DNA of 59,853 nucleotides from Escherichia phage KS_A8: the sequence record PP627279.1. One strand, 5' to 3'. Of the stretch, positions 2,107 to 52,756 are shown piece by piece (within the stretch, counting starts at the first letter, position 1; each line of letters opens with the position of its first letter). The notes beneath the pieces are model-generated. The model ran no database searches. It saw nothing but the letters and a program-made list of their open reading frames with translations, and was not told the DNA's origin. A program made the translations under genes and the position numbers.

Positions 2107-3603
2107 ATGGGTATTGATGCAACTCACCCGCTATACGACAAGTGGAAGAATGCATGGATTAAGTGCAACGACTGCTATGAGGGTGAAGATAAAATTAAGG
2201 AAGAAGGTGTTAAATATCTACCGCCTTTAGCTTCCATGATTATTGATGGGATGAATAATCCTAATGATTTGGGCTTTCAACGTTGGCTTGCCTATCGTCT
2301 GCGTGCTAACTTCCCTGACGATTATTCAAGTGCGGTTACAAACAATCTAGGTCTGCTGCACCAGAAGCCTCCTACAATCCAGCTCCCCCCTGAAATGGAA
2401 TACATGCGGGATCTGTGTACTGCGGACGGTGAAGACATTATTGCTCTGCTACGTCGCATCAACGAAATGCAGTTAAAAAATGGGCGTTTGGGCCTGCTAC
2501 TGGACTTGCCTAAAGGTGAGGATGTAAATAACAGACCTTATATTAGCGTTTATGACGCTTTATCCATTATCAACTGGGATGATGGTAAAGATGAATTGGG
2601 CAATATCAACTTGAACATGGTTGTTCTGGATGAAAGTGGTCCTGTACGTGTCAATCAGTTTGACTGGAAAGAAGAGAAGCGTTATCGCGTTCTACAATTA
2701 GGTCCAATGGACACAGATGAAGTTGCAGGTGGAGCTGTCTACTCCCAACATCTGTTTATTAACAATACCAATTATGATGAAGGGCAAATGATTGCTCCTT
2801 ATTATAAAGGTAATACGCTGGATGAAATTCCTTTCCAGTTTGTCAATACAACAGATATTACCCCAGCACCGGAAGCGCCGCCATTGTTGGGTCTTGCTAA
2901 CATTTGTCTAAGCATGTACCGAAGTGATGCGGATTACCGCCAAAGCTTGCATATGCAGGGTCAGGACACCTTAGTCGTTGTTGGTGGTACTGGGGAGAAT
3001 GGGGATAAAGCCCCTCAACGCATCGGTCCTGGCGCTGTCATTAACGTTGCTATTGGTGGTGACGCTAAATATGTAGGTGTTAGCGGTGACGGTTTGTCCG
3101 AGCAACGTCTCGCACTTGCAGCGGATAAGCAAGAAGCCCAAATTAAAGCCGGGCAAATGGTAAACAATACCAAGAGTACGCAGGAATCGGGTGAAGCCAT
3201 GAAAACGCGTATTGCTGCGCGTACAGCTAGTCTGATTCGAATTGCGTATACTGGTGCGGCTGGTCTGGAAAACTTGCTGAAGGTTTGCGCTAAGTGGATG
3301 GGCGCTGATCCCGAGAAAGTTGTGGTTAAGCCTAATCTTGAATTCACCAAGAGCATGTTTAACGGTCAAGACTTTGTTCAAATTATCACTGCACGCAACC
3401 TTAAAGCTCCGATTAGCTTGCAGTCTATTCATGGCTGGCTTGTTGATCAGGGATTAACCACACTAAGCTTTGAAGAAGAAATGGCAATTCTTGAAGAAGA
3501 GCTTAAGAAGTGGCCTCTGCCTGATGATGCTAAAGCTGATTTAAACGCAGAGCAGCAAGTAAGCAAAGATCCTAAGGAAGACAACGCTTCCGATAAAGAA
3601 TAG
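2107..3603 (+). CDS. portal protein
   Basis: 498 aa, immediately after terL, acidic C-terminus; call from synteny and size. Confidence 0.7.
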   Translation: MGIDATHPLYDKWKNAWIKCNDCYEGEDKIKEEGVKYLPPLASMIIDGMNNPNDLGFQRWLAYRLRANFPDDYSSAVTNNLGLLHQKPPTIQLPPEMEYMRDLCTADGEDIIALLRRINEMQLKNGRLGLLLDLPKGEDVNNRPYISVYDALSIINWDDGKDELGNINLNMVVLDESGPVRVNQFDWKEEKRYRVLQLGPMDTDEVAGGAVYSQHLFINNTNYDEGQMIAPYYKGNTLDEIPFQFVNTTDITPAPEAPPLLGLANICLSMYRSDADYRQSLHMQGQDTLVVVGGTGENGDKAPQRIGPGAVINVAIGGDAKYVGVSGDGLSEQRLALAADKQEAQIKAGQMVNNTKSTQESGEAMKTRIAARTASLIRIAYTGAAGLENLLKVCAKWMGADPEKVVVKPNLEFTKSMFNGQDFVQIITARNLKAPISLQSIHGWLVDQGLTTLSFEEEMAILEEELKKWPLPDDAKADLNAEQQVSKDPKEDNASDKE

Positions 3604-30050: not shown

Positions 30051-30659
30051 TTATTTACAAGCTTCAAGGAACTCCCGGCGCCATTCTTTACCAATATCGC
30101 TACCATGCTCCAGTTCTGTAGCTCCCCGGAACGCTTTGGTAATGGTAGAGCTTCCGCATACCTGCTTAACCCCGCGCGATTCCATGCACATATGCTTAGC
30201 ATCGATGTAAACGCACACAGCTTTCGGGTCTAAATGCTCCTGGATAGCATCTGCAATCTGGTTAGTAAGACGTTCCTGAACTTGCAGTCGACGACTAAAA
30301 GCATCCACAACGCGAGACAGTTTACTGAGCCCCACAATGCGACCGTTAGGAACATACCCCACAACAGCGCGACCGATAATAGGGGCTATATGGTGTTCAC
30401 AATGGCTATAAACTGGAATATCACGGACGATGACCATTTCATTTGAACCTTCCGCCCCGTCTTCAAAGGTTTTAAACAGACCAGCAATATCCACATTATA
30501 ACCGCCAAACCATGTAGCATAGGCTTTAGCGACACGATATGGAGTCTCTTCCAAACCTGGACGTAATTCAGTGCAATTTTCAATTCGAGTTAGTAAAGCT
30601 CGCACCGCGCGAGTAATTTCAAATTGAATACTTTCGTCATTAATAGTAAATTTTGGCAT
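30051..30659 (-). CDS. folE: GTP cyclohydrolase I
   Basis: CEHH active-site motif in ...VYSHCEHHIAPIIGRAVVGYVPNGRIVGLSKLSRVV...; start set at MPKF (RBS AAGGAA); an upstream in-frame ATG at 30692 is also possible. Confidence 0.85.
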   Translation of the reverse strand: MPKFTINDESIQFEITRAVRALLTRIENCTELRPGLEETPYRVAKAYATWFGGYNVDIAGLFKTFEDGAEGSNEMVIVRDIPVYSHCEHHIAPIIGRAVVGYVPNGRIVGLSKLSRVVDAFSRRLQVQERLTNQIADAIQEHLDPKAVCVYIDAKHMCMESRGVKQVCGSSTITKAFRGATELEHGSDIGKEWRREFLEACK

Positions 30660-30694
30660 GGTTTGCAGTTTCCTTGTTGTTAATGTGGTCATAC

Positions 30695-31216
30695 TTACAG
30701 GCTATAGTTTACGTGACATTTTGAAGTTTCTTCGATGGTGCATTCTACAAGTTGAACACCATGTTCGTCAAGCAGTTGCGGCCCAATTACTTCAACCATA
30801 TATGCAGCTAAGTTTTCCGCAGTTGGGTTAAACGGTAAAGATACCAGCGAACCGAAATATGCGTCCGTATGCTCGCAAGGGTCTTGTTCACCCGTTGCAA
30901 TTTCATGATGGATACACTCGCGGACTTTTGTAAATAGCGGGTCATTTTCCCAATGCAGGAATTTATGATCCCAGTTATCTTCCAGCCACTGGCAGAGCGT
31001 AGTTTTAACCACGCTAAAATCAATAACTCGCCCAACGCTGTCCAGACCGTCCTCAATCAGCTTTCCTCGTGTCACTACTTTTCCGCATCCATGTTTCGGC
31101 ACAACCTTAAAGTGAAACTTATAGTTGTGACCGTGGAGGTGGCGACATTTGCTTTCGTGACCTACAACACGATGTCCGGCGCAAATTTCATGTGAACGAA
31201 TTACTGTATAGCTCAT
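30695..31216 (-). CDS. queD: 6-carboxy-5,6,7,8-tetrahydropterin synthase
   Basis: 173 aa; CAGHRVVGHESKCRHLHGHNYKF matches the QueD/PTPS Cys/His zinc-binding signature. Confidence 0.8.
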   Translation of the reverse strand: MSYTVIRSHEICAGHRVVGHESKCRHLHGHNYKFHFKVVPKHGCGKVVTRGKLIEDGLDSVGRVIDFSVVKTTLCQWLEDNWDHKFLHWENDPLFTKVRECIHHEIATGEQDPCEHTDAYFGSLVSLPFNPTAENLAAYMVEVIGPQLLDEHGVQLVECTIEETSKCHVNYSL

Positions 31217-31716
31217 TTTAATGCCTCTTTAGACTGTTCAATTTCTAATGCACGCTGTGCGGATGCAATAATATCTTTCAAGTCTTCTACCAGACTTTTA
31301 TGACCGCGTTCGCCCGGCTGCAACGCCTTTTTAATTAAATGTTGTAAAGCTGGGTTAGTTGTTTTCCAAGCTTCCAAGACATCATACACGTCCACGATGC
31401 ATTTTACAACATTGCCGTTTTGATCTTTACCATAAATAATTTTCTGATATTTATTCATGGGAATTTTAGATGGTTCAATAGATTGTTTGACGTAATCATC
31501 CGCAACGATATATCGCCAGGCTATAATATCTTGAATTTTATAAGGGCTATTCTCATCCATAGCTGAACGCCCTTCTATAGCCCAATCCCATCCATGTAAT
31601 AGATTCTTAACGTGTGTGCCGTTGCGCAAACGAACTTCAAACTTCTCATTACGAAGAAAAATAGGCATTCCTTTACCGTCGTGTAGGTGCCAAATTTTAT
31701 TCAAATTATCTTTCAT
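31213..31716 (-). CDS. hypothetical protein in the deazaguanine cluster
   Basis: Start set at MKDNL just after the yhhQ-like stop; 167 aa; no motif recognised. Confidence 0.3.
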   Translation of the reverse strand: MKDNLNKIWHLHDGKGMPIFLRNEKFEVRLRNGTHVKNLLHGWDWAIEGRSAMDENSPYKIQDIIAWRYIVADDYVKQSIEPSKIPMNKYQKIIYGKDQNGNVVKCIVDVYDVLEAWKTTNPALQHLIKKALQPGERGHKSLVEDLKDIIASAQRALEIEQSKEALK

Positions 31717-31717
31717 T

Positions 31718-32197
31718 TTACGCTCTCGCTGTACGTGAATGAACTTCGTAAACAACCCAAAGGATAGCAGACGCTGTGAACTTACTTAAGCTCATTGCTA
31801 CCATCGATCCCGGATTAACAATACCTATAATACTTAAGAACACAATGGAGTCAATTGGTACAGCTACCAAAGAGCTAATAAATACTCGTTGATGGAAAGG
31901 CTTCTTGGTGACCGTGTATACTACATAGTCCGCGAACTCACTAAGCGCAAAAGACGCAACGGATGCAACTACAACCGCAGGATCACCGAACACCCAGCTA
32001 AGGATGCAACCAACAATCATTGCAGGGATGACGCCTTTGCCAGCGTTACGCTGTGCGTAATCACGCAGAACAAAGATAATACCTACAAAGAAAGCCATCA
32101 TTGGGACTACGCCAAGTGGCGTATTAAGCATCGGAAGGTAAGAAAAGCCCAGGTTTACGAATGTAATTGCAGCCAGATAAGCAACGATAAATTTCAT
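31718..32197 (-). CDS. queuosine-precursor transporter-like membrane protein (YhhQ/COG1738-like, putative)
   Basis: 159 aa, several hydrophobic helices, embedded between queD and queC; family assignment is from context and memory. Confidence 0.4.
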   Translation of the reverse strand: MKFIVAYLAAITFVNLGFSYLPMLNTPLGVVPMMAFFVGIIFVLRDYAQRNAGKGVIPAMIVGCILSWVFGDPAVVVASVASFALSEFADYVVYTVTKKPFHQRVFISSLVAVPIDSIVFLSIIGIVNPGSMVAMSLSKFTASAILWVVYEVHSRTARA

Positions 32198-34382: not shown

Positions 34383-34451
34383 CTTAAATCCTCTAGTGAA
34401 AAAGAAAGCGCCTCATTGGGCGCTTTCATTATAACGTGATATGTTTTGATA

Positions 34452-35933: not shown

Positions 35934-37916
35934 TTAGAACGGAACGTAATCCGGATCATCTACTTGCACAGGATTAACCACATTGTTCACCGTTATACCT
36001 TGCGTATTCTGCGAAACAATATCGTCCCAGCTCACATCATCATTATAGCTTGGACCTTCTGTTGTTCCATCCTGCCCGTATACTTTAACCTGAATAGCTT
36101 CGTCGTCCTGTGGTGCTTCAAACTTACCGAAACACGTACCATCATAATCATAGTTCAAAATCTCAGGCCATTTCTTATTGGTATGAACTTTGATGTATTT
36201 CGGCGTTTTGAGCATCGCAGCAACATCAAGGGCTTCTTCAATAGTTTGTGGTAAAGGAAGATGCGTCCTTTTCTTCCACCATGCAACCGCTTTACGACCA
36301 GCCCAGTCGCCATGCAGCAAAGCTACCCATTCGCTAAATATTTTACTACCGCAATAATAAGTCACCTTCATTGTTGGAGGTTTGGAGCTGTCATTGCGTT
36401 TAGTGTGCTTCGCATAAGTGACATGCGTGACTTTAAAGTCTTCAACTACCGGAATGTCCTGTTTGATCAATGCTTCGGTACTTGCTGCCTTTTTAAGTTT
36501 CGTCTGGAACTTAAACTCATGACCGCAAAATCCTTCTTTAACATAATCCGTTCCACGTAGTCTGAATCCCTTCAAATATAATTGTTGAACTTGTTCCTGT
36601 GTAACGCTGTCCATAGGAATTGGTGCAAAGCCACCGCAATAGCGAGCAGATGCATGATTATACGACCCGCACACATCGCATTCTTTAACCGGAGCAGTAC
36701 CAGCACCTTTTTCGCCCGGGCGCTTAGGTTTAACAGGGTCGTTAATAGGCCCCAAACGGCGCGTATTACCGCTGAAATCCAGTACAAGGCAGTTTTGCTT
36801 AGGGCTTGCTGCAATAGCTTGCAAGCGACCTTCCTGCGTGGAAAGATCAAAGCCCTCCGCATATACCGGACGCGTACCGCGACCCAACATCTGAACCCAT
36901 AGCACCGCCGACGCAGTGGGGCGGAGCATGATAATTAGATCGAGCATCGGATGGTCGAAACCTGTGGTTAAGACGTTGTTGTTTGTCAATGCTCGAAACT
37001 CTCCACGCTTGAACTTTTCAATAATTTCATCACGCTCTTTTGCATCAAGCTTTGAGTGAATACATCCGCAACTAATACCCATATCGTTCAGCATATCACA
37101 CGCATCTTTAGCGTGTTCAATACCAGAACAAAATATAAGCCAGCTTTGACGGTCTTCACCACATTCAATGGCTTCCTCAAGTGCGCGGAGTGTTGCGTCG
37201 TCGCGGTTTACCGCACTTTGCAGCTCGCTTTGAATAAACTCACCGCCGCGTTTCCCTACACCATTGAGGTCCAGTTCCATCTTTGTACGCTTTGGCACAA
37301 CCGGAAGCAAATAACCTTGCTCCAGGAACCAGTTAAAGGCTTCATGGGTAGTCGCATCAAACGTTACTTTATCAAATAAAGCATCATCGTCTTCGTTTTC
37401 CTTAACAATTGAGCCGTAACCCAGTCGATAAGGTGTAGCGGTAAGACCGATAATTTTTAAATACGGGTTAACTTCACGCAATGCTGCAAAGAACTTCTTA
37501 TACATTGTTGCATCACGCGGACTAATAAGGTGCGCTTCATCCACAAAAATTAGATCTACCTTGCCGAACTTTTTAGGATGCTTAGCAACAGATGCGATCC
37601 CCGCAAATGTGATAAGATTATAAACTTCTTTACGCTTCAAACCTGCGCTGTAAATACCTGCTGGCGCTTCAGGCCAGACTTTCATTAATTTATCATAGTT
37701 TTGTGCAATTAACTCTTTGACATGAGTTAACATCATTACGCGCTGGTTTGGATACCATTTATAAAGCAGATCGAGGAACCCCGCGATAACGAGCGATTTT
37801 CCTGTCCCTGTTGGTAACAGGATCAAAGGGTTCCCCGCGTTACCCTTTTCAGCATCAAAATAGCGGAATACGCTATAAACTGCTTCCTGTTGATAATCGC
37901 GGAGCTGCATAATCAA
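35934..37916 (-). CDS. SF2 DNA helicase (DEAH box) with C-terminal Cys cluster
   Basis: RDYQQEAV Q-motif, Walker A LLPTGTGKS, motif II VDEAHLIS, C-terminal CDVCGSYNHASARYCGG. Confidence 0.75.
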   Translation of the reverse strand: MIMQLRDYQQEAVYSVFRYFDAEKGNAGNPLILLPTGTGKSLVIAGFLDLLYKWYPNQRVMMLTHVKELIAQNYDKLMKVWPEAPAGIYSAGLKRKEVYNLITFAGIASVAKHPKKFGKVDLIFVDEAHLISPRDATMYKKFFAALREVNPYLKIIGLTATPYRLGYGSIVKENEDDDALFDKVTFDATTHEAFNWFLEQGYLLPVVPKRTKMELDLNGVGKRGGEFIQSELQSAVNRDDATLRALEEAIECGEDRQSWLIFCSGIEHAKDACDMLNDMGISCGCIHSKLDAKERDEIIEKFKRGEFRALTNNNVLTTGFDHPMLDLIIMLRPTASAVLWVQMLGRGTRPVYAEGFDLSTQEGRLQAIAASPKQNCLVLDFSGNTRRLGPINDPVKPKRPGEKGAGTAPVKECDVCGSYNHASARYCGGFAPIPMDSVTQEQVQQLYLKGFRLRGTDYVKEGFCGHEFKFQTKLKKAASTEALIKQDIPVVEDFKVTHVTYAKHTKRNDSSKPPTMKVTYYCGSKIFSEWVALLHGDWAGRKAVAWWKKRTHLPLPQTIEEALDVAAMLKTPKYIKVHTNKKWPEILNYDYDGTCFGKFEAPQDDEAIQVKVYGQDGTTEGPSYNDDVSWDDIVSQNTQGITVNNVVNPVQVDDPDYVPF

Positions 37917-43870: not shown

Positions 43871-44527
43871 CTATTTCAAATAGCGGGAAGTCATAATTGG
43901 ATGCAAAGACACTTCTTCCTCAGATGTAACCACATCAGTGGCAGGTACAAAGTTGTTGGACTGCTCGTCTCCACGTTTCCACCCTTTGCCGTTACCCTTT
44001 TTAAGTTCGCCCGTACCAGTGGACCCAAAGCCATTGGCACCGCGCTCAGTGCTCTTAAGCTCGTCCACTTCTACCAGTTGCACGCTGGGCAGCTTAATAA
44101 GCATAGCTTGCGCAATGCGATCACCATGATTGACAGTAAAACTACCATCGTTATCAATAGTAATCTTAACCTTAACTTCTCCAGTGTAGTCGCTATCAAT
44201 GACCCCCACGCAGTTTGCTAGACGCACGTCGTTTTTGAATCCGTGTCCACTCCGGGAATAGACCATAAGCGCGTGACCTTCAGGAATATCAAACGCCAAT
44301 CCTGTGCGGAATATGTGCTCGTAAGAGAAAATAATTTGCTCACATCCATCTTCACTCTTAAGATCCGCGTGCAGGTCAAAGCAAGCTGCCCCCGCACTGG
44401 CAAACGATGGAAGAATTGCGCTGTCTGTTAAGCGTTTCACCCCGAGAAGAGTTGGCGCAAAGGATGCAGCAGTTATGCTAGAATTAGTCACAGAAATAGT
44501 GTGCATGTTATTTAATATGTCAGTCAT
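43871..44527 (-). CDS. dut: dUTP diphosphatase (dUTPase) with N-terminal extension
   Basis: Motifs GVIDSDYTGEV and RGANGFGSTG; RBS AAGGTGA; about 65 extra N-terminal residues relative to a typical ~150-aa dUTPase. Confidence 0.85.
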   Translation of the reverse strand: MTDILNNMHTISVTNSSITAASFAPTLLGVKRLTDSAILPSFASAGAACFDLHADLKSEDGCEQIIFSYEHIFRTGLAFDIPEGHALMVYSRSGHGFKNDVRLANCVGVIDSDYTGEVKVKITIDNDGSFTVNHGDRIAQAMLIKLPSVQLVEVDELKSTERGANGFGSTGTGELKKGNGKGWKRGDEQSNNFVPATDVVTSEEEVSLHPIMTSRYLK

Positions 44528-46403: not shown

Positions 46404-46430
46404 AAAGGGCCGAAAGGCCCTTTATTTATT
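46404..46430. terminator. bidirectional intrinsic terminator
   Basis: AAAGGGCC-GAAA-GGCCCTTT hairpin followed by ATTTATT. Confidence 0.55.
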
Positions 46431-48768
46431 CCTCTTCACCTAAGTTTGCCATAATTCCTTCAACATCTTGCGTAATGCGCCAAGCTGCCCCAGTAAATCC
46501 CAGTTTAATAGTCTCCTCCCGTGTTACCGGAACAAGTGCACCCATAGCAACCATCTCCTTGATTGTAGACTCGATTGCAGCGGATAATCCGTGATGATAG
46601 TTTTTAAACGCGGACTTACTTGCAAGACGCGTAGTAATATCGCCCCGCGTGATAATACCTTCTTTGCGCAAATCTACACGTTTAACTTTCACCCAGTCTT
46701 TAGTTAGATAATTCACACAGACCTGACACATAGTACGGATACGAGCTTCATCATTAGTCCCAATGCCTCCGCTATGCCATTCCTTCATAATAATATCCTG
46801 CCCATGACGCACGAAGTCCAAAGCCCATTGCACATGATAGGTTTGTACCACCGGATTGATCCAGTTCTCACCCACAGCTAACAAGGCAGAAAGTCGCAAG
46901 ACCTTTAGGTGAGCACGGTTCCACGGCTGACGAATCGCTTCGTCTTTGGTTGCGTTAATATTGCGATCACATTCATCGTTAAACTGATCGCATAATGCTT
47001 CCGCATCCGGGCTAAACTGTACTTCAATACTCTGATGCTTTGCCATTGTCACTAACGTGTGGTTAACGAGATGGCACACCATGTCCTTCAAATGCTGATC
47101 CATTGTAGTCTGCTGATTTTTGTTTAAAGGTGGTCGATCACCTTCATAGCGTACAACATGGAAACGGGATAAGAATCCATCCTCCATCATTTCACGGGTT
47201 AATGCTTCAAAGAACGTATCCGGTGTCGTTTCGCCCATGATGCTATATGCCACACCTTGTTGAGCTTCAGTATTATTAGCCTTATCAGAATAAGACATAC
47301 CACCAACGATAGACATCTGACCGGACTTTTGATAAACATCGGTAAGGTCATTCTTGAAACTTTGCATCGGCGAGCCTGCTGGAGCCGTTGCCATTGCTTT
47401 GATAATTTTACCGAACTCACCATTCAGGTTGATAAAAGATTGTTTGTCTGCAAAAGATTTACGCAGTGCAGATCCAGAAGCGCATCTATCAAAAGATACA
47501 AAGCTATGAATCTGCGGAAACTGGTCCTGAATCTGGCTAACTATATTAGACAGCCCACTGTTCAACGTCTCTTTACCAACACCAGAACGAGCAATTAAGA
47601 CAAAATATCCATTAAGACCGGATTGCGGGATCTGCCATACTTTCCCGCATACCCCAGCCATAAATCCGAGTGATGTAACAATAGAGATTTCTTTCACTGG
47701 TCTGACGGATGCTTTGTATATATATTTAGCAATCTCCCCAGCAAGCCCCGGCGGCCAGTCAATAGCTGTTGCATCAACGGATGTGCTTTCTGCAACTACT
47801 GTCTGCCCCTGTGTTGTTTCAACAGTTACGGGCATTTCCGCTACCTGCTGCATTGCACTGTGTGCAGCTTGCATACGAGCAGCATAATCCCGCGCCAGCG
47901 CCGCTACGTTTTCCTGGGCAATGCGCTCACGCTCCATGCGACCGCGACACATACGCAAGCAACGGTCAATATGAACATTGTTCTTATTAGCCTTCTCACG
48001 TTTGCCCAGCGCACTATAACGGAACAGACGGCGACATTGCTCATTACTTTCCGTGTAAAATGCATACATAGAAATAAGGGCAAGGTCTGCTTCAGACTGG
48101 GAAGGGAATCCCATTTCAACCCATTCACCATTAAATAACCGCGCATACTTATCGCCGTTATCTGCTTCAAGCGCACGCTGATGAATAGTTGCATCATCTT
48201 CTACCGGATCTTTTTCTACCAGTTCAATTTCATATGTCTTGCGCTGAAGATCAATTTCATTCACAAGCATAGTAAGGTAATGATCACGTTCTGCGACTGG
48301 TTTGTTGTAGACGGGATTGCCCGTGCAGATAATAAAACGCTCCTGACTATAAACCTCGACACCATCACGTCGACGACCTTTACCGATGTTACCTCTTAAC
48401 CACAGGTGAACACCCAGGCCTGAGCGACTCACTTCGGTGTAAGTATCGAACGCAGTCATGATCTGTTCGAAGCGGCGCAACTGATCCGGCGTCGTGTGCT
48501 TCTTGGGATCAGGTTCATTGGTTGCATTCTTCACATCCAGGTCGATGCAGGTGAACGGGTCTTGTGCAGTAAGCACGAATCCAATATAAGGTTTATTGAA
48601 ATGAGCGGCGCAACCTTTGGCAGCTTCAAACGTCATAAGCATATCCGGATCGGTAACGTCCGCCGCCATCAAACGTCCAATATCGCTATCCCATACCAAC
48701 GGCTTTTTATCCGCATCGGCGACCGCCCATTGTGGGAAAGCTTTAATTTCAGCGGGAAACAGTTCCAT
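46426..48768 (-). CDS. DNA primase/helicase (prim-pol-like N-terminus plus P-loop NTPase)
   Basis: 780 aa; N-terminal FTCIDLDVKN and SRSGLGVHLWL resemble prim-pol motifs; central Walker A LIARSGVGKET. Confidence 0.55.
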   Translation of the reverse strand: MELFPAEIKAFPQWAVADADKKPLVWDSDIGRLMAADVTDPDMLMTFEAAKGCAAHFNKPYIGFVLTAQDPFTCIDLDVKNATNEPDPKKHTTPDQLRRFEQIMTAFDTYTEVSRSGLGVHLWLRGNIGKGRRRDGVEVYSQERFIICTGNPVYNKPVAERDHYLTMLVNEIDLQRKTYEIELVEKDPVEDDATIHQRALEADNGDKYARLFNGEWVEMGFPSQSEADLALISMYAFYTESNEQCRRLFRYSALGKREKANKNNVHIDRCLRMCRGRMERERIAQENVAALARDYAARMQAAHSAMQQVAEMPVTVETTQGQTVVAESTSVDATAIDWPPGLAGEIAKYIYKASVRPVKEISIVTSLGFMAGVCGKVWQIPQSGLNGYFVLIARSGVGKETLNSGLSNIVSQIQDQFPQIHSFVSFDRCASGSALRKSFADKQSFINLNGEFGKIIKAMATAPAGSPMQSFKNDLTDVYQKSGQMSIVGGMSYSDKANNTEAQQGVAYSIMGETTPDTFFEALTREMMEDGFLSRFHVVRYEGDRPPLNKNQQTTMDQHLKDMVCHLVNHTLVTMAKHQSIEVQFSPDAEALCDQFNDECDRNINATKDEAIRQPWNRAHLKVLRLSALLAVGENWINPVVQTYHVQWALDFVRHGQDIIMKEWHSGGIGTNDEARIRTMCQVCVNYLTKDWVKVKRVDLRKEGIITRGDITTRLASKSAFKNYHHGLSAAIESTIKEMVAMGALVPVTREETIKLGFTGAAWRITQDVEGIMANLGEEE

Positions 48769-48779
48769 GACTTATCCTT

Positions 48780-48995
48780 TTACAGAGAACCAACCATTGC
48801 ACGACCAACCGCAGCTAATAAACATTCCTTAGTCTTGTTAATGGCTTTCTCAGCATCTAGATAGCTCTCATAATGTCCAAGGTAAACGATAGCACCTGCA
48901 ACCATAATATAAGCTGTGCGGTAATGCATGTAATGCCCAATAAACCAACCCTGTTCCCGAAGCTTAGTTTGACCAAATTCATAAAGTACCATCAT
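48780..48995 (-). CDS. hypothetical protein
   Basis: 71-aa ORF with a hydrophobic central segment. Confidence 0.25.
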   Translation of the reverse strand: MMVLYEFGQTKLREQGWFIGHYMHYRTAYIMVAGAIVYLGHYESYLDAEKAINKTKECLLAAVGRAMVGSL

Positions 48996-49195
48996 GACCT
49001 CCGACGCTTATCGCCTTGCATCTTTTCCAGAGCGGGCACTGCTAAAGAGCGTTTGTAGATGTACTGGTTAGCAATTGTGATAGCGCCCGGGATGCTGTCA
49101 CGTATGCGCGACATCTTAAACTTAGATATGCCATAACGGTCTTCGATTTCCGCCGCCGTTATGTAGTTCAAATCAAACTCCGATTCGTGATCCAT
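48992..49195 (-). CDS. small hypothetical protein, possible DNA-binding
   Basis: Start set at MDHESEF (RBS GGAGGG); 67 aa. Confidence 0.3.
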   Translation of the reverse strand: MDHESEFDLNYITAAEIEDRYGISKFKMSRIRDSIPGAITIANQYIYKRSLAVPALEKMQGDKRRRS

Positions 49196-49260
49196 AATAC
49201 CCTCCGTTACAACCGTCCACACAATACACATTAACGCCTTACTTTGCAACTATTTTTGCA

Positions 49261-49989
49261 TTATTGCGGAGTTGTGATAATATGGTTACCAACTTCTAAC
49301 ATAACGTCCTGCGGCTCCCTTCCCTGTCTTAAGCTAATGAGCCAATTATCAATATTAGGAAGAATATTTTTAGCCTGTTCAGCATCCCTGTATATTGCAA
49401 GGTCTACCCAATGAGCGCCAAGCTTAACACGGATAGCGGTGGCGGTTTCGTAATGGTGCAGGGAACACGTAGGCCAGCGACCGCGATTATGCCAGTCCCG
49501 AACATCACCGCTCCGGCGCATCCTGTACCAGCGTTGTGTCAAAGAATTAGCCTCCTTATCTGTCAGAGGATCCCCTTTGAGCAAAGCTTGGCGCTCTATC
49601 CATGCTTTAAGCTCAACGTTTTCCTTGCGCCCTACTTTACCCTTATCTTCTTTCATCTTAAGTGCTTCTTCATATGGGTCGTTACCCTTGCCCATGTGGT
49701 AATTGAATTTACCCGTATAGCTGCGAAGCTCTTTGGCATCCAGTTCATGACCCAACTTATCGCTCACCCATGCAAGAAAAGCGGCCCGTTCTGCATCCAG
49801 CTTTCCCGCTTTTTGTCTTACAGCTTTTTTAACAGGCTGTTCCACATCTTCGTTGAAGTAATCCTCCACCATAGCAAGCGCCTGTGATTTGGTTGGCGCA
49901 CCGCGCAACTGCGAGCAAGCTTGAGCAACCCATGCAACATAGCACAAATCTTTAACCACAGTTTTAGACGTAATAGTTTCTTCGCTCAT
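49261..49989 (-). CDS. hypothetical protein
   Basis: 242 aa; RBS AGGAGG; first gene downstream of the large AT-rich intergenic region. Confidence 0.35.
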   Translation of the reverse strand: MSEETITSKTVVKDLCYVAWVAQACSQLRGAPTKSQALAMVEDYFNEDVEQPVKKAVRQKAGKLDAERAAFLAWVSDKLGHELDAKELRSYTGKFNYHMGKGNDPYEEALKMKEDKGKVGRKENVELKAWIERQALLKGDPLTDKEANSLTQRWYRMRRSGDVRDWHNRGRWPTCSLHHYETATAIRVKLGAHWVDLAIYRDAEQAKNILPNIDNWLISLRQGREPQDVMLEVGNHIITTPQ

Positions 49990-50657
49990 AAATCCTCCTA
50001 GTCAACTGGTGAAGCCACTATAAAACAGGCATTAGCTATTTGCAAGGATTGTTTTGATATAGTGCTTAGTGGCGTACATAGTGGAAAATTTGCGTATAGT
50101 ACGCGGTTACTAGCTTTGTAAAAGTTTGCCACTATAAACCACTATCTCACTATTCACTAATTTTTATTTTTACACAGAGCAAAGTTTATAAGTTTATGTT
50201 GCTCCCCTTAACCCCTTATGTAAATCTAAGAATTAGTAGTAGTAGTGAAAACGTGTAAATGCCACTATCACTACTATACTATTAATTCTCTAACATTTGG
50301 TGGGGTATACCCCCCTATAAACTTATAAACTTTCAGTCAACTAACTAAAATAAACCAAATTAAAATAATATTAATAATAAGTATAAATATATATAAAATA
50401 AGGATTTATTATTAATGTATATAGTACCTATTGGTATTATTTGACGAGTTTATGGTCATTATATAAACTCTATAAATTTTCATAAACCTGAACGGATGCA
50501 GATCAAAAATGAGAAGTCAAGTGCTTTTGAGGGAAATTTATTGAACTATTGTGATCGGAAGGTATATCAAGCTATAATGCGCTTAATCGCGGGATATTGG
50601 AGGAGGACTTTATTGCGCGGTTAACCGGACCAGTAGGAGGGCTGGCCCGGCAGAAGT
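49990..50657. promoter_or_regulatory. 668-bp AT-rich non-coding region with CCACTAT repeats, inverted repeats and an extreme AT tract (candidate origin/promoter array)
   Basis: No ORF with an RBS; at least six CCACTAT/ATAGTGG copies; 18-bp inverted repeat AAAGTTTATAAGTTTATG / CATAAACTTATAAACTTT about 125 bp apart; GGGGTATACCCCCC palindrome; roughly 80 bp of near-pure A/T (50340-50425). Confidence 0.4.
50017..50045 (-). promoter_or_regulatory. sigma70-like promoter for the leftward gene at 49989
   Basis: On the minus strand TTGCAA-N17-TATAGT, with the -10 formed by one of the CCACTATA repeats. Confidence 0.35.
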
Positions 50658-50984
50658 TTAGAGCTGTACAGGTATGAAGTGGGCTAGCGTATCGTCGGAC
50701 ATAATACCCGACAGTTTTTCGCTTACCCAATCGGACCAAATACTATCCGGTTCCTGGCGGTGTACAAACCAGATTTCGGATGTGCCTTCTTTGCGCATCG
50801 GTTGCACTTCTGCAAGGAACTTGTCCTGCATAAGGCGGGTGAAGCATACGCTGGTCATTGGAACCGGCTTTTCGTCTTTATTGTAATAAGGGACCAATAT
50901 TTTATTTCCGAAGTCGGCAACTTCATAAACCGTTCCTTTACGTAGACCTCTGATGTCAGTGTAAGAGCGGATGAACTTTTTCAT
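50658..50984 (-). CDS. hypothetical protein
   Basis: 108-aa ORF. Confidence 0.3.
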   Translation of the reverse strand: MKKFIRSYTDIRGLRKGTVYEVADFGNKILVPYYNKDEKPVPMTSVCFTRLMQDKFLAEVQPMRKEGTSEIWFVHRQEPDSIWSDWVSEKLSGIMSDDTLAHFIPVQL

Positions 50985-50986
50985 AT

Positions 50987-51163
50987 TTATTTCCTTACGA
51001 ACACAGAGCCGACGAATAATGTTGACTGAGTGGCAGCTTGCTCGATTAATTCGCCAACAAGCTGGGACTGCGTCAGAGGCTTGAGGCCTTCTTTGGCGCG
51101 AGCTTCATTTACACGACGTTGAAGGTCTTTTAAGTATTGAGTTGCGAAACTATCTAATTGCAT
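50987..51163 (-). CDS. small hypothetical protein (58 aa)
   Basis: Not in the ORF track (below 60 aa); ATG preceded by AGGAGTAACGAAA; stop lies 2 nt before the next start. Confidence 0.35.
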   Translation of the reverse strand: MQLDSFATQYLKDLQRRVNEARAKEGLKPLTQSQLVGELIEQAATQSTLFVGSVFVRK

Positions 51164-51219
51164 TTTCGTTACTCCTAGGGCTCCCGCAGAAGCCCGTCAG
51201 TGAACAGTGTGGTTATAGA

Positions 51220-51834
51220 TTATGCGTCCAGGCCGTTGTATTTGCGCCAGGCGTAGAACTGAATGGCTACCGTAGTCCCGTTGTAAGAAGGCATTGCAGC
51301 TTTCATCTCTTTCAGTTCCGGCGTGCGGCCCAGTTCAGCTAAAAGTTTGTCGCCCATTGCCCACACTTCGGCGGTTTTTCCTTTCAGAGGCTTGCGAGCG
51401 CCATTTTTGAAATCACAGCGAGCAGCTTTTACATCCTGTTTTGGCGCGGCAGCTTTTGGCTCTTCAATTTTGATTTCAGAAACCGGCTTGGCAGCTTTTG
51501 CGTGTTTCATATCTTTCTCTTCCTCCTGCTCCAAAGCTTCGAGGCAGCTTTTGACAATTTCCGGATTTACCATCGGACGCAGTACCGAGACGCTGGCTGC
51601 TGGCGCGGCGGTCGGTGCTGGGACTTTCTGCTCCGGCTGTTGCGCTTTTTCGTGATCGCGCAGCACCTGAAGGACTTCCTTTTCGACGATGTAAAAACCG
51701 ATATCGTCCTGATGGATTAACTGTTCGTGTGCATCGCGTGCAACCTGGCCCCAGCGAGTTTTTAGAGCGCGGCGTGCATTCGTTTTCATGGTGTAGCGCA
51801 TTTTATCCTGTTCGCGGTGAGTTACTTTAGACAT
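51220..51834 (-). CDS. Ala/Lys/Glu-rich protein, paralog of the 34452-35261 product
   Basis: Start set at MSKVTH (RBS AAGGAG); low-complexity centre and C-terminus ...FYAWRKYNGLDA matching ...QYARWKKFNG of the other gene. Confidence 0.35.
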   Translation of the reverse strand: MSKVTHREQDKMRYTMKTNARRALKTRWGQVARDAHEQLIHQDDIGFYIVEKEVLQVLRDHEKAQQPEQKVPAPTAAPAASVSVLRPMVNPEIVKSCLEALEQEEEKDMKHAKAAKPVSEIKIEEPKAAAPKQDVKAARCDFKNGARKPLKGKTAEVWAMGDKLLAELGRTPELKEMKAAMPSYNGTTVAIQFYAWRKYNGLDA

Positions 51835-51907
51835 GGTATAGCTCCTTTCGTTAAAGTTAGTTTGCTTATTACTGCCCACCGTAATGATGAGCAGTGTATA
51901 AGAAAAC

Positions 51908-52156
51908 TTACTGCACGATTGCTACGAAATCGGCGGTTGCGATATCCATGCTTGCGAAAGCAACGATGCCATAGTCGGTGTCGTTTTCGGCGTTAAAAGC
52001 TTTGAGGAACTGCTGTACCGCTGCTTTATGGTTAAGCGTTACGTCGATAGCATAGTCCCAGCTATAGACTTTGCGCTTGCCAAAACCTTTAACTGCAATG
52101 CGTGCGCCTTTGGTGTTAGTTGGTGCCAAAAATTTGGTGACGATAGAAGTAGCCAT
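51908..52156 (-). CDS. hypothetical protein
   Basis: 82-aa ORF. Confidence 0.3.
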   Translation of the reverse strand: MATSIVTKFLAPTNTKGARIAVKGFGKRKVYSWDYAIDVTLNHKAAVQQFLKAFNAENDTDYGIVAFASMDIATADFVAIVQ

Positions 52157-52225
52157 GATGTATATCCTCGTTTTGTTTAAGTTGACTTATTATTGCCCAG
52201 TCAGATCAACTAGGCAAGATATAAA

Positions 52226-52438
52226 TCACTTAATTTGTACCAAATCGTATTCTTTGTAAATTTCGCTAATGTACATATCGAACTGACCCATTAAGAAGAT
52301 TTCGGCCTCCTCCCAGCTTGGGGCAGATACATAACCGGCTATTTTACCGGACGCGAGTTCCACTAATTTGAATTCCATGATGCAACCCTTAATGTGGTTA
52401 AGCAGTATTGCTTTGTTGAAGTAATAATAGCCTTGCAT
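52226..52438 (-). CDS. hypothetical protein (first leftward early gene)
   Basis: 70-aa ORF next to the divergent promoter region. Confidence 0.3.
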   Translation of the reverse strand: MQGYYYFNKAILLNHIKGCIMEFKLVELASGKIAGYVSAPSWEEAEIFLMGQFDMYISEIYKEYDLVQIK

Positions 52439-52589
52439 CGTGATATTGAATAGGCCAAAAGTGCGATTTTGATATTGTTTTGCATCTAGTGAAAATTATG
52501 CTTGCCATGCATATTTAGCACTAATGGCCTAACTAACATCACATTATCTGGCGTATTCGCGCGGGCGCACACATGCTTATAAGGTGGTG

Positions 52590-52715
52590 CCGGATCGACC
52601 AGGTGGGAGCGGTGCACAGGATCGACCAGGGGCATCCGGTGCCCTGCGTGTGCGGAGCCTACCAGGTGGAAGCAGCTCCTGCGTGTGCCGGAAATACCAG
52701 GGGCGCGCGAGCCCA
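52590..52715. repeat. GC-rich degenerate direct repeats in the divergent control region
   Basis: GGATCGACCAGG at 52592 and 52619; ACCAGGTGG at 52598 and 52671; ACCAGGGG at 52625 and 52696; CTGCGTGTGC at 52644 and 52679. Confidence 0.4.
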
Positions 52716-52756
52716 TGCACTTTACAAAATATTTTTATAAAAAGTGCAAAAAGGTG

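Follow-up and report, generated by a model that had tools for sequence, protein, structure and literature searches.

Where does Escherichia phage KS_A8 begin to replicate its DNA, and which protein would recognize the starting point? The sequence of this phage (record PP627279.1; 59,853 nucleotides, the whole stretch being referred to hereafter as the window) holds one long non-coding gap directly upstream of the operon encoding the primase-helicase, which an earlier note had read as a candidate origin combined with an array of early promoters. Our survey suggests that the gap is probably the phage replication origin, recognized by the phage's own primase-helicase. By analogy with known systems, the best reading would be an origin of the self-loading-helicase type, in the style of staphylococcal pathogenicity islands (SaPIs) and phage P4, joined to the sequences that control the replication operon. 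Comparison among relatives favours an origin together with a leftward promoter and leaves the promoter array unsupported. All support for the origin reading is computational, and we found no publication on replication or transcription in the genus Seuratvirus, nor one mapping an origin or initiator in Seuratvirus or the wider Queuovirinae.

The element in question is the following.

49990 to 50657, no strand: non-coding gap, 668 bp, 33% GC against 44.7% for the genome.

Judged by its layout, the window is the whole genome of a Seuratvirus, cut open at the small terminase gene, with structural genes on the plus strand up to about 23.6 kb, a minus-strand block from 24 to 52.7 kb (DNA polymerase, deazaguanine pathway, helicase, ligase and primase) and a block of small plus-strand genes from 52.8 kb. 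The gap sits within the minus-strand block, bounded by genes at 49261-49989 (242 aa) and 50658-50984 (108 aa), both on the minus strand, and lies upstream of the primase gene, with 1.2 kb and three small genes separating it from the start codon (48768). Its standing as the longest non-coding stretch in the window was confirmed by a genome-wide gap listing, an apparent 997-bp gap at 34383 being a gene-caller artefact (Seurat has an annotated 804-bp gene at the corresponding position). The region matches about 33 phage records, nearly all of them Escherichia phages of the genus Seuratvirus (Queuovirinae), with SeppeHuegi as the closest match to the region (about 91%). A gap of 630-1035 bp occupies the same place in Seurat, CAjan, Greed, SA80RD, SA126VB, GottfriedDienst, Skure and yong3, and a gap lies at this position in every Seuratvirus locus examined, with a left part that differs in sequence.

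What distinguishes the gap physically is its centre, which contains two overlapping features.

50340 to 50425, no strand: AT-rich core, candidate DNA unwinding element, 86 bp, 10.5% GC.
50383 to 50444, no strand: near-invariant block ATAAATATATATAAAATAAGGATTTATTATTAATGTATATAGTACCTATTGGTATTATTTGA, columns 394-455 of the type 1 alignment.

The stretch of roughly 80 bp of almost pure A/T at 50340-50425, suggested earlier as a possible unwinding element, is present: the GC content of the core compares with 25.6% for the next lowest 86-bp window genome-wide, and positions 50342-50441 form the least stable 100-bp duplex in the genome (dG -95.9 against a mean of -135.9 and a standard deviation of 7.5, that is, 5.3 standard deviations below). 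The ATAAATATATATAAAATAAGGATTTATTATTAATGTATATAGTACCTATTGGTATTATTTGA block is common to type 1 phages with primase allele A or B (the types being those of the R1 repeats described below), is largely kept in types 2 and 3, and is also present in Seurat and GottfriedDienst. Over the whole genome, cumulative GC skew is lowest at 50356, a position within the AT core, and highest at 24211. Because the minus-strand genes flanking the gap differ in skew (about +0.03 to its right, at 50658-52716, and -0.13 to -0.25 to its left), the gap, rather than the point near 52.8 kb where the coding strand changes, is the place of the switch. This is the pattern expected of a bidirectional origin, counted here as supporting evidence only, because transcription confounds skew in phages. 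No integration host factor (IHF) consensus was found in the gap, and its single DnaA-like box (50168) is not conserved in relatives.

Short repeats surround this core, and a set of about 35 relatives served to tell two repeat systems apart. The heptamer AGTTTAT, which we call R2, has 6 of its 15 genome copies in the gap (P = 9e-9), at 50183, 50191 and 50447 on the plus strand and at 50317, 50325 and 50463 on the minus strand, so that the copies bracket the AT core in opposite orientations. They are arranged in three pairs.

50181 to 50197, plus strand: R2 left arm, tandem pair AAAGTTTAT-AAGTTTAT, present in the closest relatives only and lacking in Seurat.
50317 to 50333, minus strand: R2 pair adjoining the AT core on the left, reading ATAAACTT-ATAAACTTT on the plus strand, present in all allele-A phages.
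50446 to 50470, no strand: R2 palindromic pair right of the core, GAGTTTAT, 9 nt, ATAAACTC.

The palindromic pair lies directly to the right of the near-invariant block that ends the AT-rich region. The other two pairs are the arms of a perfect 17-bp inverted repeat, 119 bp apart, each arm being a tandem pair of AAGTTTAT units; this is the inverted repeat that the earlier note had described, with its length given as 18 bp and its spacing as about 125 bp. Related phages carry other heptamers at the corresponding places: AGTTTTG in Greed, SA80RD, SA126VB, WildeMaa, GottfriedDienst and Skure, with CCAAAAACCTAAAACTTT standing in allele-B phages where the window has the 50317-50333 pair, and (G)AATTTTA in the loci L014 and L024. 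Iteron-like behaviour, which had been ascribed to repeats of CCACTAT, is seen in the AAGTTTAT units and not in the CCACTAT family, which assorts independently of the primase allele.

The protein that would read R2 is encoded in the same block of minus-strand genes.

46426 to 48768, minus strand: 780-aa primase-helicase, with an archaeo-eukaryotic primase (AEP) prim-pol domain at residues 1-260, DUF3987 at about 490-655 and a winged helix at about 661-780.
46429 to 46788, minus strand: predicted C-terminal winged-helix domain, proposed to bind the origin; the most variable part of the family, with alleles that co-vary with R2.

Its N-terminal domain is homologous to that of the SaPI protein PriRep5 (phmmer against the PDB, 7OLA, E = 1.2e-10 over residues 61-264; profile search, E = 9.4e-31 over residues 8-257), and the profile search also matched the NrS-1 prim-pol (1e-18); a Pfam match to NrS1-1_pol-like_HBD was found as well. 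The central region matches Pfam DUF3987 (E = 6e-13, above the curated cut-off) and, weakly, a PHROG helicase. The C-terminus is predicted to fold as a winged helix, and a homologue search with this domain alone returned a single protein.

When each protein of the window was compared with its counterparts in Seurat, GottfriedDienst and WildeMaa, the backbone proved 95-100% identical with few sharp exceptions. Primase identity is 98% in Seurat and 77-78% in GottfriedDienst and WildeMaa; the divergence is limited to residues 281-780 and peaks in the last 120 residues (42% identity), and residues 1-280, encoded nearer the gap, are 99-100% identical between alleles A and B. No other protein of the replication block shows a clean A/B pattern. 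The C-terminal half of allele A is 98-99.8% identical in 12 database phages and the window, and these 12 coincide exactly with the phages that have AGTTTAT and a central gap like that of the window. Allele B is found in 18 phages (C-terminal half 61-62% identical, winged helix 42%); all seven allele-B gaps that were read contain AGTTTTG, and 8 of the 18 phages match the central gap of the window at about 78%, the remaining 10 not at all. Allele C, present in L014 (P0016) and L024 (P0015), goes with AATTTTA; its last 120 residues are 45% identical to A and 37% to B, and its helicase part is 80% identical to B. Apart from two AGTTTAT copies in the extended 1340-bp region of Dru_SM1, no gap carries the motif of another allele, and the rule linking allele to R2 correctly predicted the motif in all three of the IMG/VR loci, which were the only related loci there. 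Because the N-terminal half of the primase and the R1 module lie between the winged helix and R2 and do not follow R2, the co-variation is not merely clade structure or linkage; it holds irrespective of R1 type and of the backbone, which is about 98% identical.

Our results are consistent with a model in which the primase-helicase uses the winged helix at its C-terminus to bind the R2 heptamers (AGTTTAT). The sites used would be the two ATAAACTT copies at 50317-50333 and GAGTTTAT/ATAAACTC at 50446-50470, to which the closest relatives would add the pair at 50181-50197. Assembly on both sides of the core would melt the 10.5% GC stretch at 50340-50425, the helicase would load itself, and its own AEP primase domain would prime bidirectional synthesis.

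Several points weigh against this model. The genomes are related, and the split into 12 and 18 phages does not amount to 30 independent observations, the number of independent alleles being about four. The winged helix of Hafnia phage yong3 is 47% identical to that of allele A, yet its gap is rich in GTTTAT. Part of the R2 enrichment is compositional, because R2 is a short AT-rich heptamer in AT-rich DNA. GC skew in phages mostly tracks transcription and gene class, and the deviant stretch here spans 2 kb only. The helicase part has no sequence match to SaPI Rep, a profile search of the PDB having matched the primase part only, and the candidate origin lies 1.2 kb upstream of the primase gene, whereas in SaPIs it lies directly downstream of rep. 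The distant phages Vid5 and PSTCR4, which encode a homologous primase, have no comparable gap beside the primase gene. Finally, the co-variation could equally arise if the primase-helicase bound operators and repressed its own operon; autoregulation is common among initiator proteins.

This last point opens onto a second account of the gap, which turns on two elements at its ends.

50017 to 50045, minus strand: leftward sigma70-like promoter, -35 TTGCAA (50045-50040), 17-nt spacer, -10 TATAGT (50022-50017).
50624 to 50651, minus strand: 10-bp GC-rich hairpin (z = -2.6 in a 131-nt stretch), shortly past the stop codon of the 108-aa gene.

The gap might be a transcriptional control region only, made up of an upstream terminator and the promoter and operators of the replication operon, with R1 serving as operators for the neighbouring small proteins, R2 mediating autorepression by the winged helix, and replication starting elsewhere or by recombination. 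The promoter is correctly placed for such a role: it matches the consensus at 9 of 12 positions and precedes the ATG of the 242-aa gene by about 28 nt, and TTGCAA recurs at the equivalent place in Seurat and L013, a promoter being annotated there in SA80RD and SA126VB. That a CCACTAT repeat supplies the -10 of a TTGCAA promoter had been pointed out before and holds, the -10 overlapping the R1 copy at 50015. The hairpin comes shortly after the upstream gene's stop codon and may terminate the upstream leftward transcript or stabilize its 3' end (the U-tail of the hairpin is weak), and its equivalent is annotated as a terminator in SA80RD and SA126VB. R1, moreover, is swapped along with the genes directly downstream. 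Left unexplained by this account are the 86-bp stretch of 10.5% GC, which is far outside the range of the genome and conserved between types, the bracketing of that core by R2 300-450 bp upstream of the promoter rather than over it, and the skew minimum at 50356. We therefore regard a control region without an origin as possible but unlikely; transcriptional control as such is not exclusive with an origin.

The origin reading draws much of its shape from known replicons. SaPI Reps are self-loading helicases whose C-terminal winged helix recognizes 6-12 penta- or hexanucleotide iterons, and the SaPI origin has a central AT-rich region with at least two iterons per side in opposite directions (PMC9371898). 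The gap holds six short candidate iterons, which flank its AT-rich centre in opposed orientations with two or more copies per side; the R2 arrangement around 50340-50445 is this layout. The likeness extends to the protein, which, like PriRep5, joins a homologous primase domain with a helicase-like ATPase and with a winged helix at the C-terminus (predicted here), to the repeats, which are short (5-7 nt), number about 6-9 copies and are opposed around an AT-rich centre, and to the way in which iteron and winged-helix sequences diverge together between otherwise related elements. Besides the position of the origin relative to the gene, KS_A8 differs from the SaPIs in that its ATPase region is a DUF3987 domain without a sequence match to the SaPI Rep helicase, in that the host element is an autonomous lytic siphophage and not a satellite, and in that a second, independently exchanged repeat family, R1, together with a promoter is interleaved with the origin.

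In the P4 alpha protein, which operates in an E. coli host, primase, helicase and a C-terminal winged-helix origin-binding domain likewise share one polypeptide. The KS_A8 enzyme resembles alpha in being a single protein of about 780 aa with a predicted winged helix and in the short repeats of the origin; no sequence match of the primase-helicase to P4 alpha was detectable. Replication of P4 also depends on crr, a second cis-acting site at a distance of several kb, and the P4 repeats are octamers, TGTTCACC. No convincing second R2 cluster was found in the window, which has only three AGTTTAT copies at 37234-37875. This minus-strand trio (37234, 37620 and 37875) occupies 640 bp inside the superfamily 2 (SF2) helicase gene; it is the sole cluster outside the gap, its significance is marginal, and it might be a second site of the crr kind.

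Lambda and iteron plasmids also have clustered repeats beside an AT-rich unwinding region and a specificity that is exchanged as a module (the lambdoid O/ori types). The repeats in the gap, by contrast, are 7-9 bp long and of mixed orientation, not direct iterons of 17-22 bp in helical phase; conserved DnaA or IHF sites were not found here; the origin would be intergenic, and not within the initiator gene as in lambda; and the initiator, judged from its domains, appears to be the helicase itself. The primary origin of T7 offers a looser parallel, in that promoter-like elements and an AT-rich stretch lie in non-coding DNA upstream of replication genes. It differs in that neither the genes examined here nor the annotations of relatives show an evident phage RNA polymerase, in that the repeats are confined to the gap and hence are not genome-wide promoters, and in that the best-conserved promoter here points away from the AT core.

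The left part of the gap belongs to the second repeat family, CCACTAT/ATAGTGG (R1).

50015 to 50153, mixed strands: R1 left block, CCACTAT at 50015, 50129 and 50139 (plus), ATAGTGG at 50078, and one-mismatch copies at 50059, 50066 and 50147.
50262 to 50277, plus strand: R1 right block, CCACTAT at 50262 and CTACTAT at 50271.
50535 to 50657, no strand: right module, 123 bp, 97-99% identical in all 33 matching database relatives (BLAST).

A genome-wide enrichment scan for CCACTAT, a check named in the earlier note, places five of the seven exact copies in the gap (50015, 50129, 50139 and 50262 on the plus strand and 50078 on the minus strand; binomial P about 4e-9). The count of at least six repeats given in that note stands if one-mismatch variants are included (11 in the gap against 1.4 expected, P = 2e-7) and falls to five for exact copies. 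In the R1 region relatives part company: BLAST shows the left 280 bp of the gap replaced outright between them, each variant with its own repeated motif, and the centre (50274-50534) above 90% identity in one set of phages but, in the rest, either at about 79% or unalignable. The (G)CCACTAT(A) type occurs in the window group, Greed, SA80RD, SA126VB and L014; seven copies of ACCCTATA (ACCCTAT type) in Seurat and CAjan; seven copies of TACCCCTA (ACCCCTA type) in L013; and five to eight copies of TGGAATAA (type 3) in GottfriedDienst, Skure and L024. Because such motifs are concentrated in the gap in the window, Seurat and GottfriedDienst, they are local cis elements and not genome-wide promoters. 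In phages of types 1a, 1b and 1c the R1 cores are invariant columns, with intervening DNA that diverges to about 60-70% identity, and they therefore constitute a phylogenetic footprint.

This footprint bears on a third account, in which the gap is a functionless recombination hotspot or mosaic junction whose repeats and low GC are the debris of module exchange and homing-endonuclease traffic. Wholesale replacement of the left part between close relatives fits such a junction, as do the HNH genes inserted around the gap in CAjan, KS_A3, SA80RD, L013 and yong3. Debris would not be expected to keep repeat cores invariant amid diverged spacers, to bring in each variant its own internally repeated motif confined to the gap, or to leave the AT core and the right module 97-99% conserved within the same overall architecture in every variant, and we consider this account very unlikely. 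HNH homing-endonuclease genes occur around the gap or primase at 2255-2737 in CAjan (L005), 3033-3515 in KS_A3 (L003), 296-820 in SA80RD (L002), 1724-2188 and 4064-4597 in L013, and 2389-3012 in yong3 (L017), and their varied insertion sites identify a hotspot where mobile genes move and modules are exchanged.

Which protein would recognize R1 is a separate matter from R2, given that R1 type is independent of primase allele (type 1 accompanies A, B or C, and type 3 accompanies B or C). The primase was considered as a partner of CCACTAT and rejected, because the primases of the window and Seurat are 98.5% identical and their R1 differs, and type 1 R1 occurs with all three alleles. The nearest candidates are two of the small genes between the gap and the primase gene.

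49261 to 49989, minus strand: 242-aa orphan protein (phrog_27223), product of the gene that immediately follows the gap.
48992 to 49249, minus strand: small helix-turn-helix (HTH)-like protein, Cox/excisionase-like (phrog_11967), with its real start probably at 49195.

R1 (50015-50277), lying over and upstream of the leftward promoter of the operon for the orphan, the HTH-like protein and the primase-helicase, would probably bind one of these two products, and its binding may tune transcription of the replication operon or help to activate the origin. R1 is exchanged as one block together with the neighbouring 242-aa gene. That protein is 41% identical in Seurat and 61% in WildeMaa and absent in GottfriedDienst and yong3; a profile search of 1.8 billion proteins returned two 50%-identity clusters only, both its own, no Pfam or NCBIfam match was found, and Foldseek against the PDB gave none at E < 0.1. 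Its N-terminal approximately 110 residues track the R1 type. The C-terminal beta-beta-beta-alpha domain was rejected as the R1 determinant, differing strongly as it does among CCACTAT phages. In GottfriedDienst (L012, 39177-39925) and Skure (L010), a 93-aa protein with an AP2-like domain (its Pfam AP2 match, at E = 2e-4, falls short of the curated cut-off) and one of 89 aa replace the 242-aa orphan, and the gap of these two phages is longer (829 bp), with TGGAATAA repeats on both sides of the AT core. A comparison of GottfriedDienst with L024 found no shared protein partner for R1 type 3. The small HTH-like protein is present in every type and diverges by type, being 50-70% identical to the compared relatives, and in yong3 its homologue carries the annotation 'regulatory protein cox'. 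Seurat and L013, whose repeats differ by one base (ACCCTAT versus ACCCCTA), share a 100% identical HTH-like protein, and on these sequences it is a doubtful candidate for sole determinant of R1.

How far the gap is also a promoter region can be judged from its right half and from the elements between the R2 arms.

50549 to 50578, plus strand: rightward sigma70-like promoter TTGTGA-18-TATAAT, 10/12, the best sigma70 match in the region.
50302 to 50313, then CC to 50315, no strand: palindrome GGGGTATACCCC, read from the sequence.
50204 to 50218, plus strand: tandem CCCCTTA, two copies, read from alignments.
50234 to 50245, plus strand: (TAG)4 run, invariant in type 1 phages.

The proposed array of early promoters is not supported by numbers: nine promoter-like sites compare with 5.1 +/- 2.1 expected in 3 kb, as AT-rich DNA gives, and comparative support extends to two promoters only, the leftward TTGCAA promoter and the rightward one. 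The rightward hexamers are kept, with a variable spacer, in L013, L014, L024 and yong3. This promoter points away from the AT core and into the 3' end of the convergent 108-aa gene, and antisense RNA, origin activation and homing-gene expression are candidate roles for it; in L013 an HNH endonuclease gene lies behind it on the same strand.

From the first of these roles follows a fourth account, that the gap encodes a non-coding RNA, either a long structured leader or a rightward transcript that would run antisense to the 108-aa gene at its 3' end. The consensus match of the rightward promoter (the best in the region), the retention of its hexamers in distant variants and the 97-99% identity of the right module in all relatives would suit such an RNA. 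Set against these are the absence of any Rfam match in the gap even at E up to 1 (49000-52000 scanned), the unremarkable predicted folding of the transcript (z = -1.5), the lack of a terminator after the rightward promoter on that strand, and the fact that the account covers the right-hand 120 bp only, leaving aside the repeats and the AT core; we judge it highly improbable. Among the smaller elements, the palindrome noted earlier does exist at 50302-50313 but is not conserved in SeppeHuegi, whose gap is 90% identical. The CCCCTTA pair and the (TAG)4 run lie between the R2 arms and are conserved in position, with a C-rich motif at the CCCCTTA position in all origin types (ACCCTAATACCCTAA in GottfriedDienst), and this region could be a priming or start site.

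Clustered repeats are also often recognized by small terminases, and pac-headful packaging has been predicted for Seurat (PMC4342423), so that a fifth account would make the gap a pac site with its repeats bound by the small terminase. TerS is, however, 98.9-100% identical across phages with all R1 types and R2 types A and B and, being nearly invariant, is not the specificity partner of R1 or R2; the gap is also about 10 kb from terS. We hold a pac site to be exceedingly unlikely, and the predicted headful packaging of Seurat makes a genome end at the gap unlikely as well.

Other observations on the gap and its genome can be given briefly. Two open reading frames (ORFs) within the gap were rejected as genes: at 50496-50624 (plus strand) a 1-nt deletion breaks the frame in SeppeHuegi and a stop codon interrupts it in L013, and 49998-50132 (minus strand) overlies the repeat array, where relatives diverge. 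Small hypothetical proteins are annotated within the gap in SeppeHuegi (L001, 2014-2148) and KS_A3 (L003, 1995-2129 and 2494-2622), and are probably spurious because the ORFs overlap the repeat array or break in relatives. No tRNA or tmRNA was found across the window, and searches of 5,426 E. coli genomes and 72,556 plasmids for satellite or plasmid copies of the gap gave no match. Record OR880647.1 (phage ECP2304, 63,590 bp) gives two matches to a 1.7-kb query around the gap, one of them near the record start, which probably reflects terminal redundancy left in the assembly. Elsewhere in the window, divergent genes of 71-90% identity lie at 30051-31755 (three, at the positions of FolE, QueD and a neighbour in Seurat) and at 43871-44527 (the position of an annotated dUTPase); these count as additional mosaic loci and have no relation to the division of the primase into A and B.

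What would an origin of this kind mean? Queuovirinae are common coliphages with 7-deazaguanine-modified DNA and are represented in the BASEL collection. A more far-reaching and on balance improbable version of our reading is an origin with two keys, in which R2 with the winged helix and R1 with the product of the orphan or HTH gene are swapped independently among lytic phages that are about 98% identical, creating replicon specificity groups. If this were so, diversification in a strictly lytic phage would point to selection on origin identity itself, possibly driven by competition between co-infecting relatives, by escape from satellites that hijack the origin or initiator, or by escape from a host defence that senses them, and the 242-aa orphan would be a new kind of origin-specificity factor.

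If the simpler model of an origin recognized by the primase-helicase is true, the origin would be narrowed to about 150 bp (50317-50470), the initiator would be named as the phage's own primase-helicase, together with its specificity domain, and the natural allele and iteron pairs A, B and C would be ready-made swap material. Possible uses would include the engineering of these phages and origin-decoy plasmids that protect fermentation strains. The self-loading primase-helicase logic of the satellites SaPI and P4 would then operate in an autonomous lytic phage, where it would stand out by its host, by the DUF3987 helicase part and by two independently exchanged recognition modules among near-identical phages.

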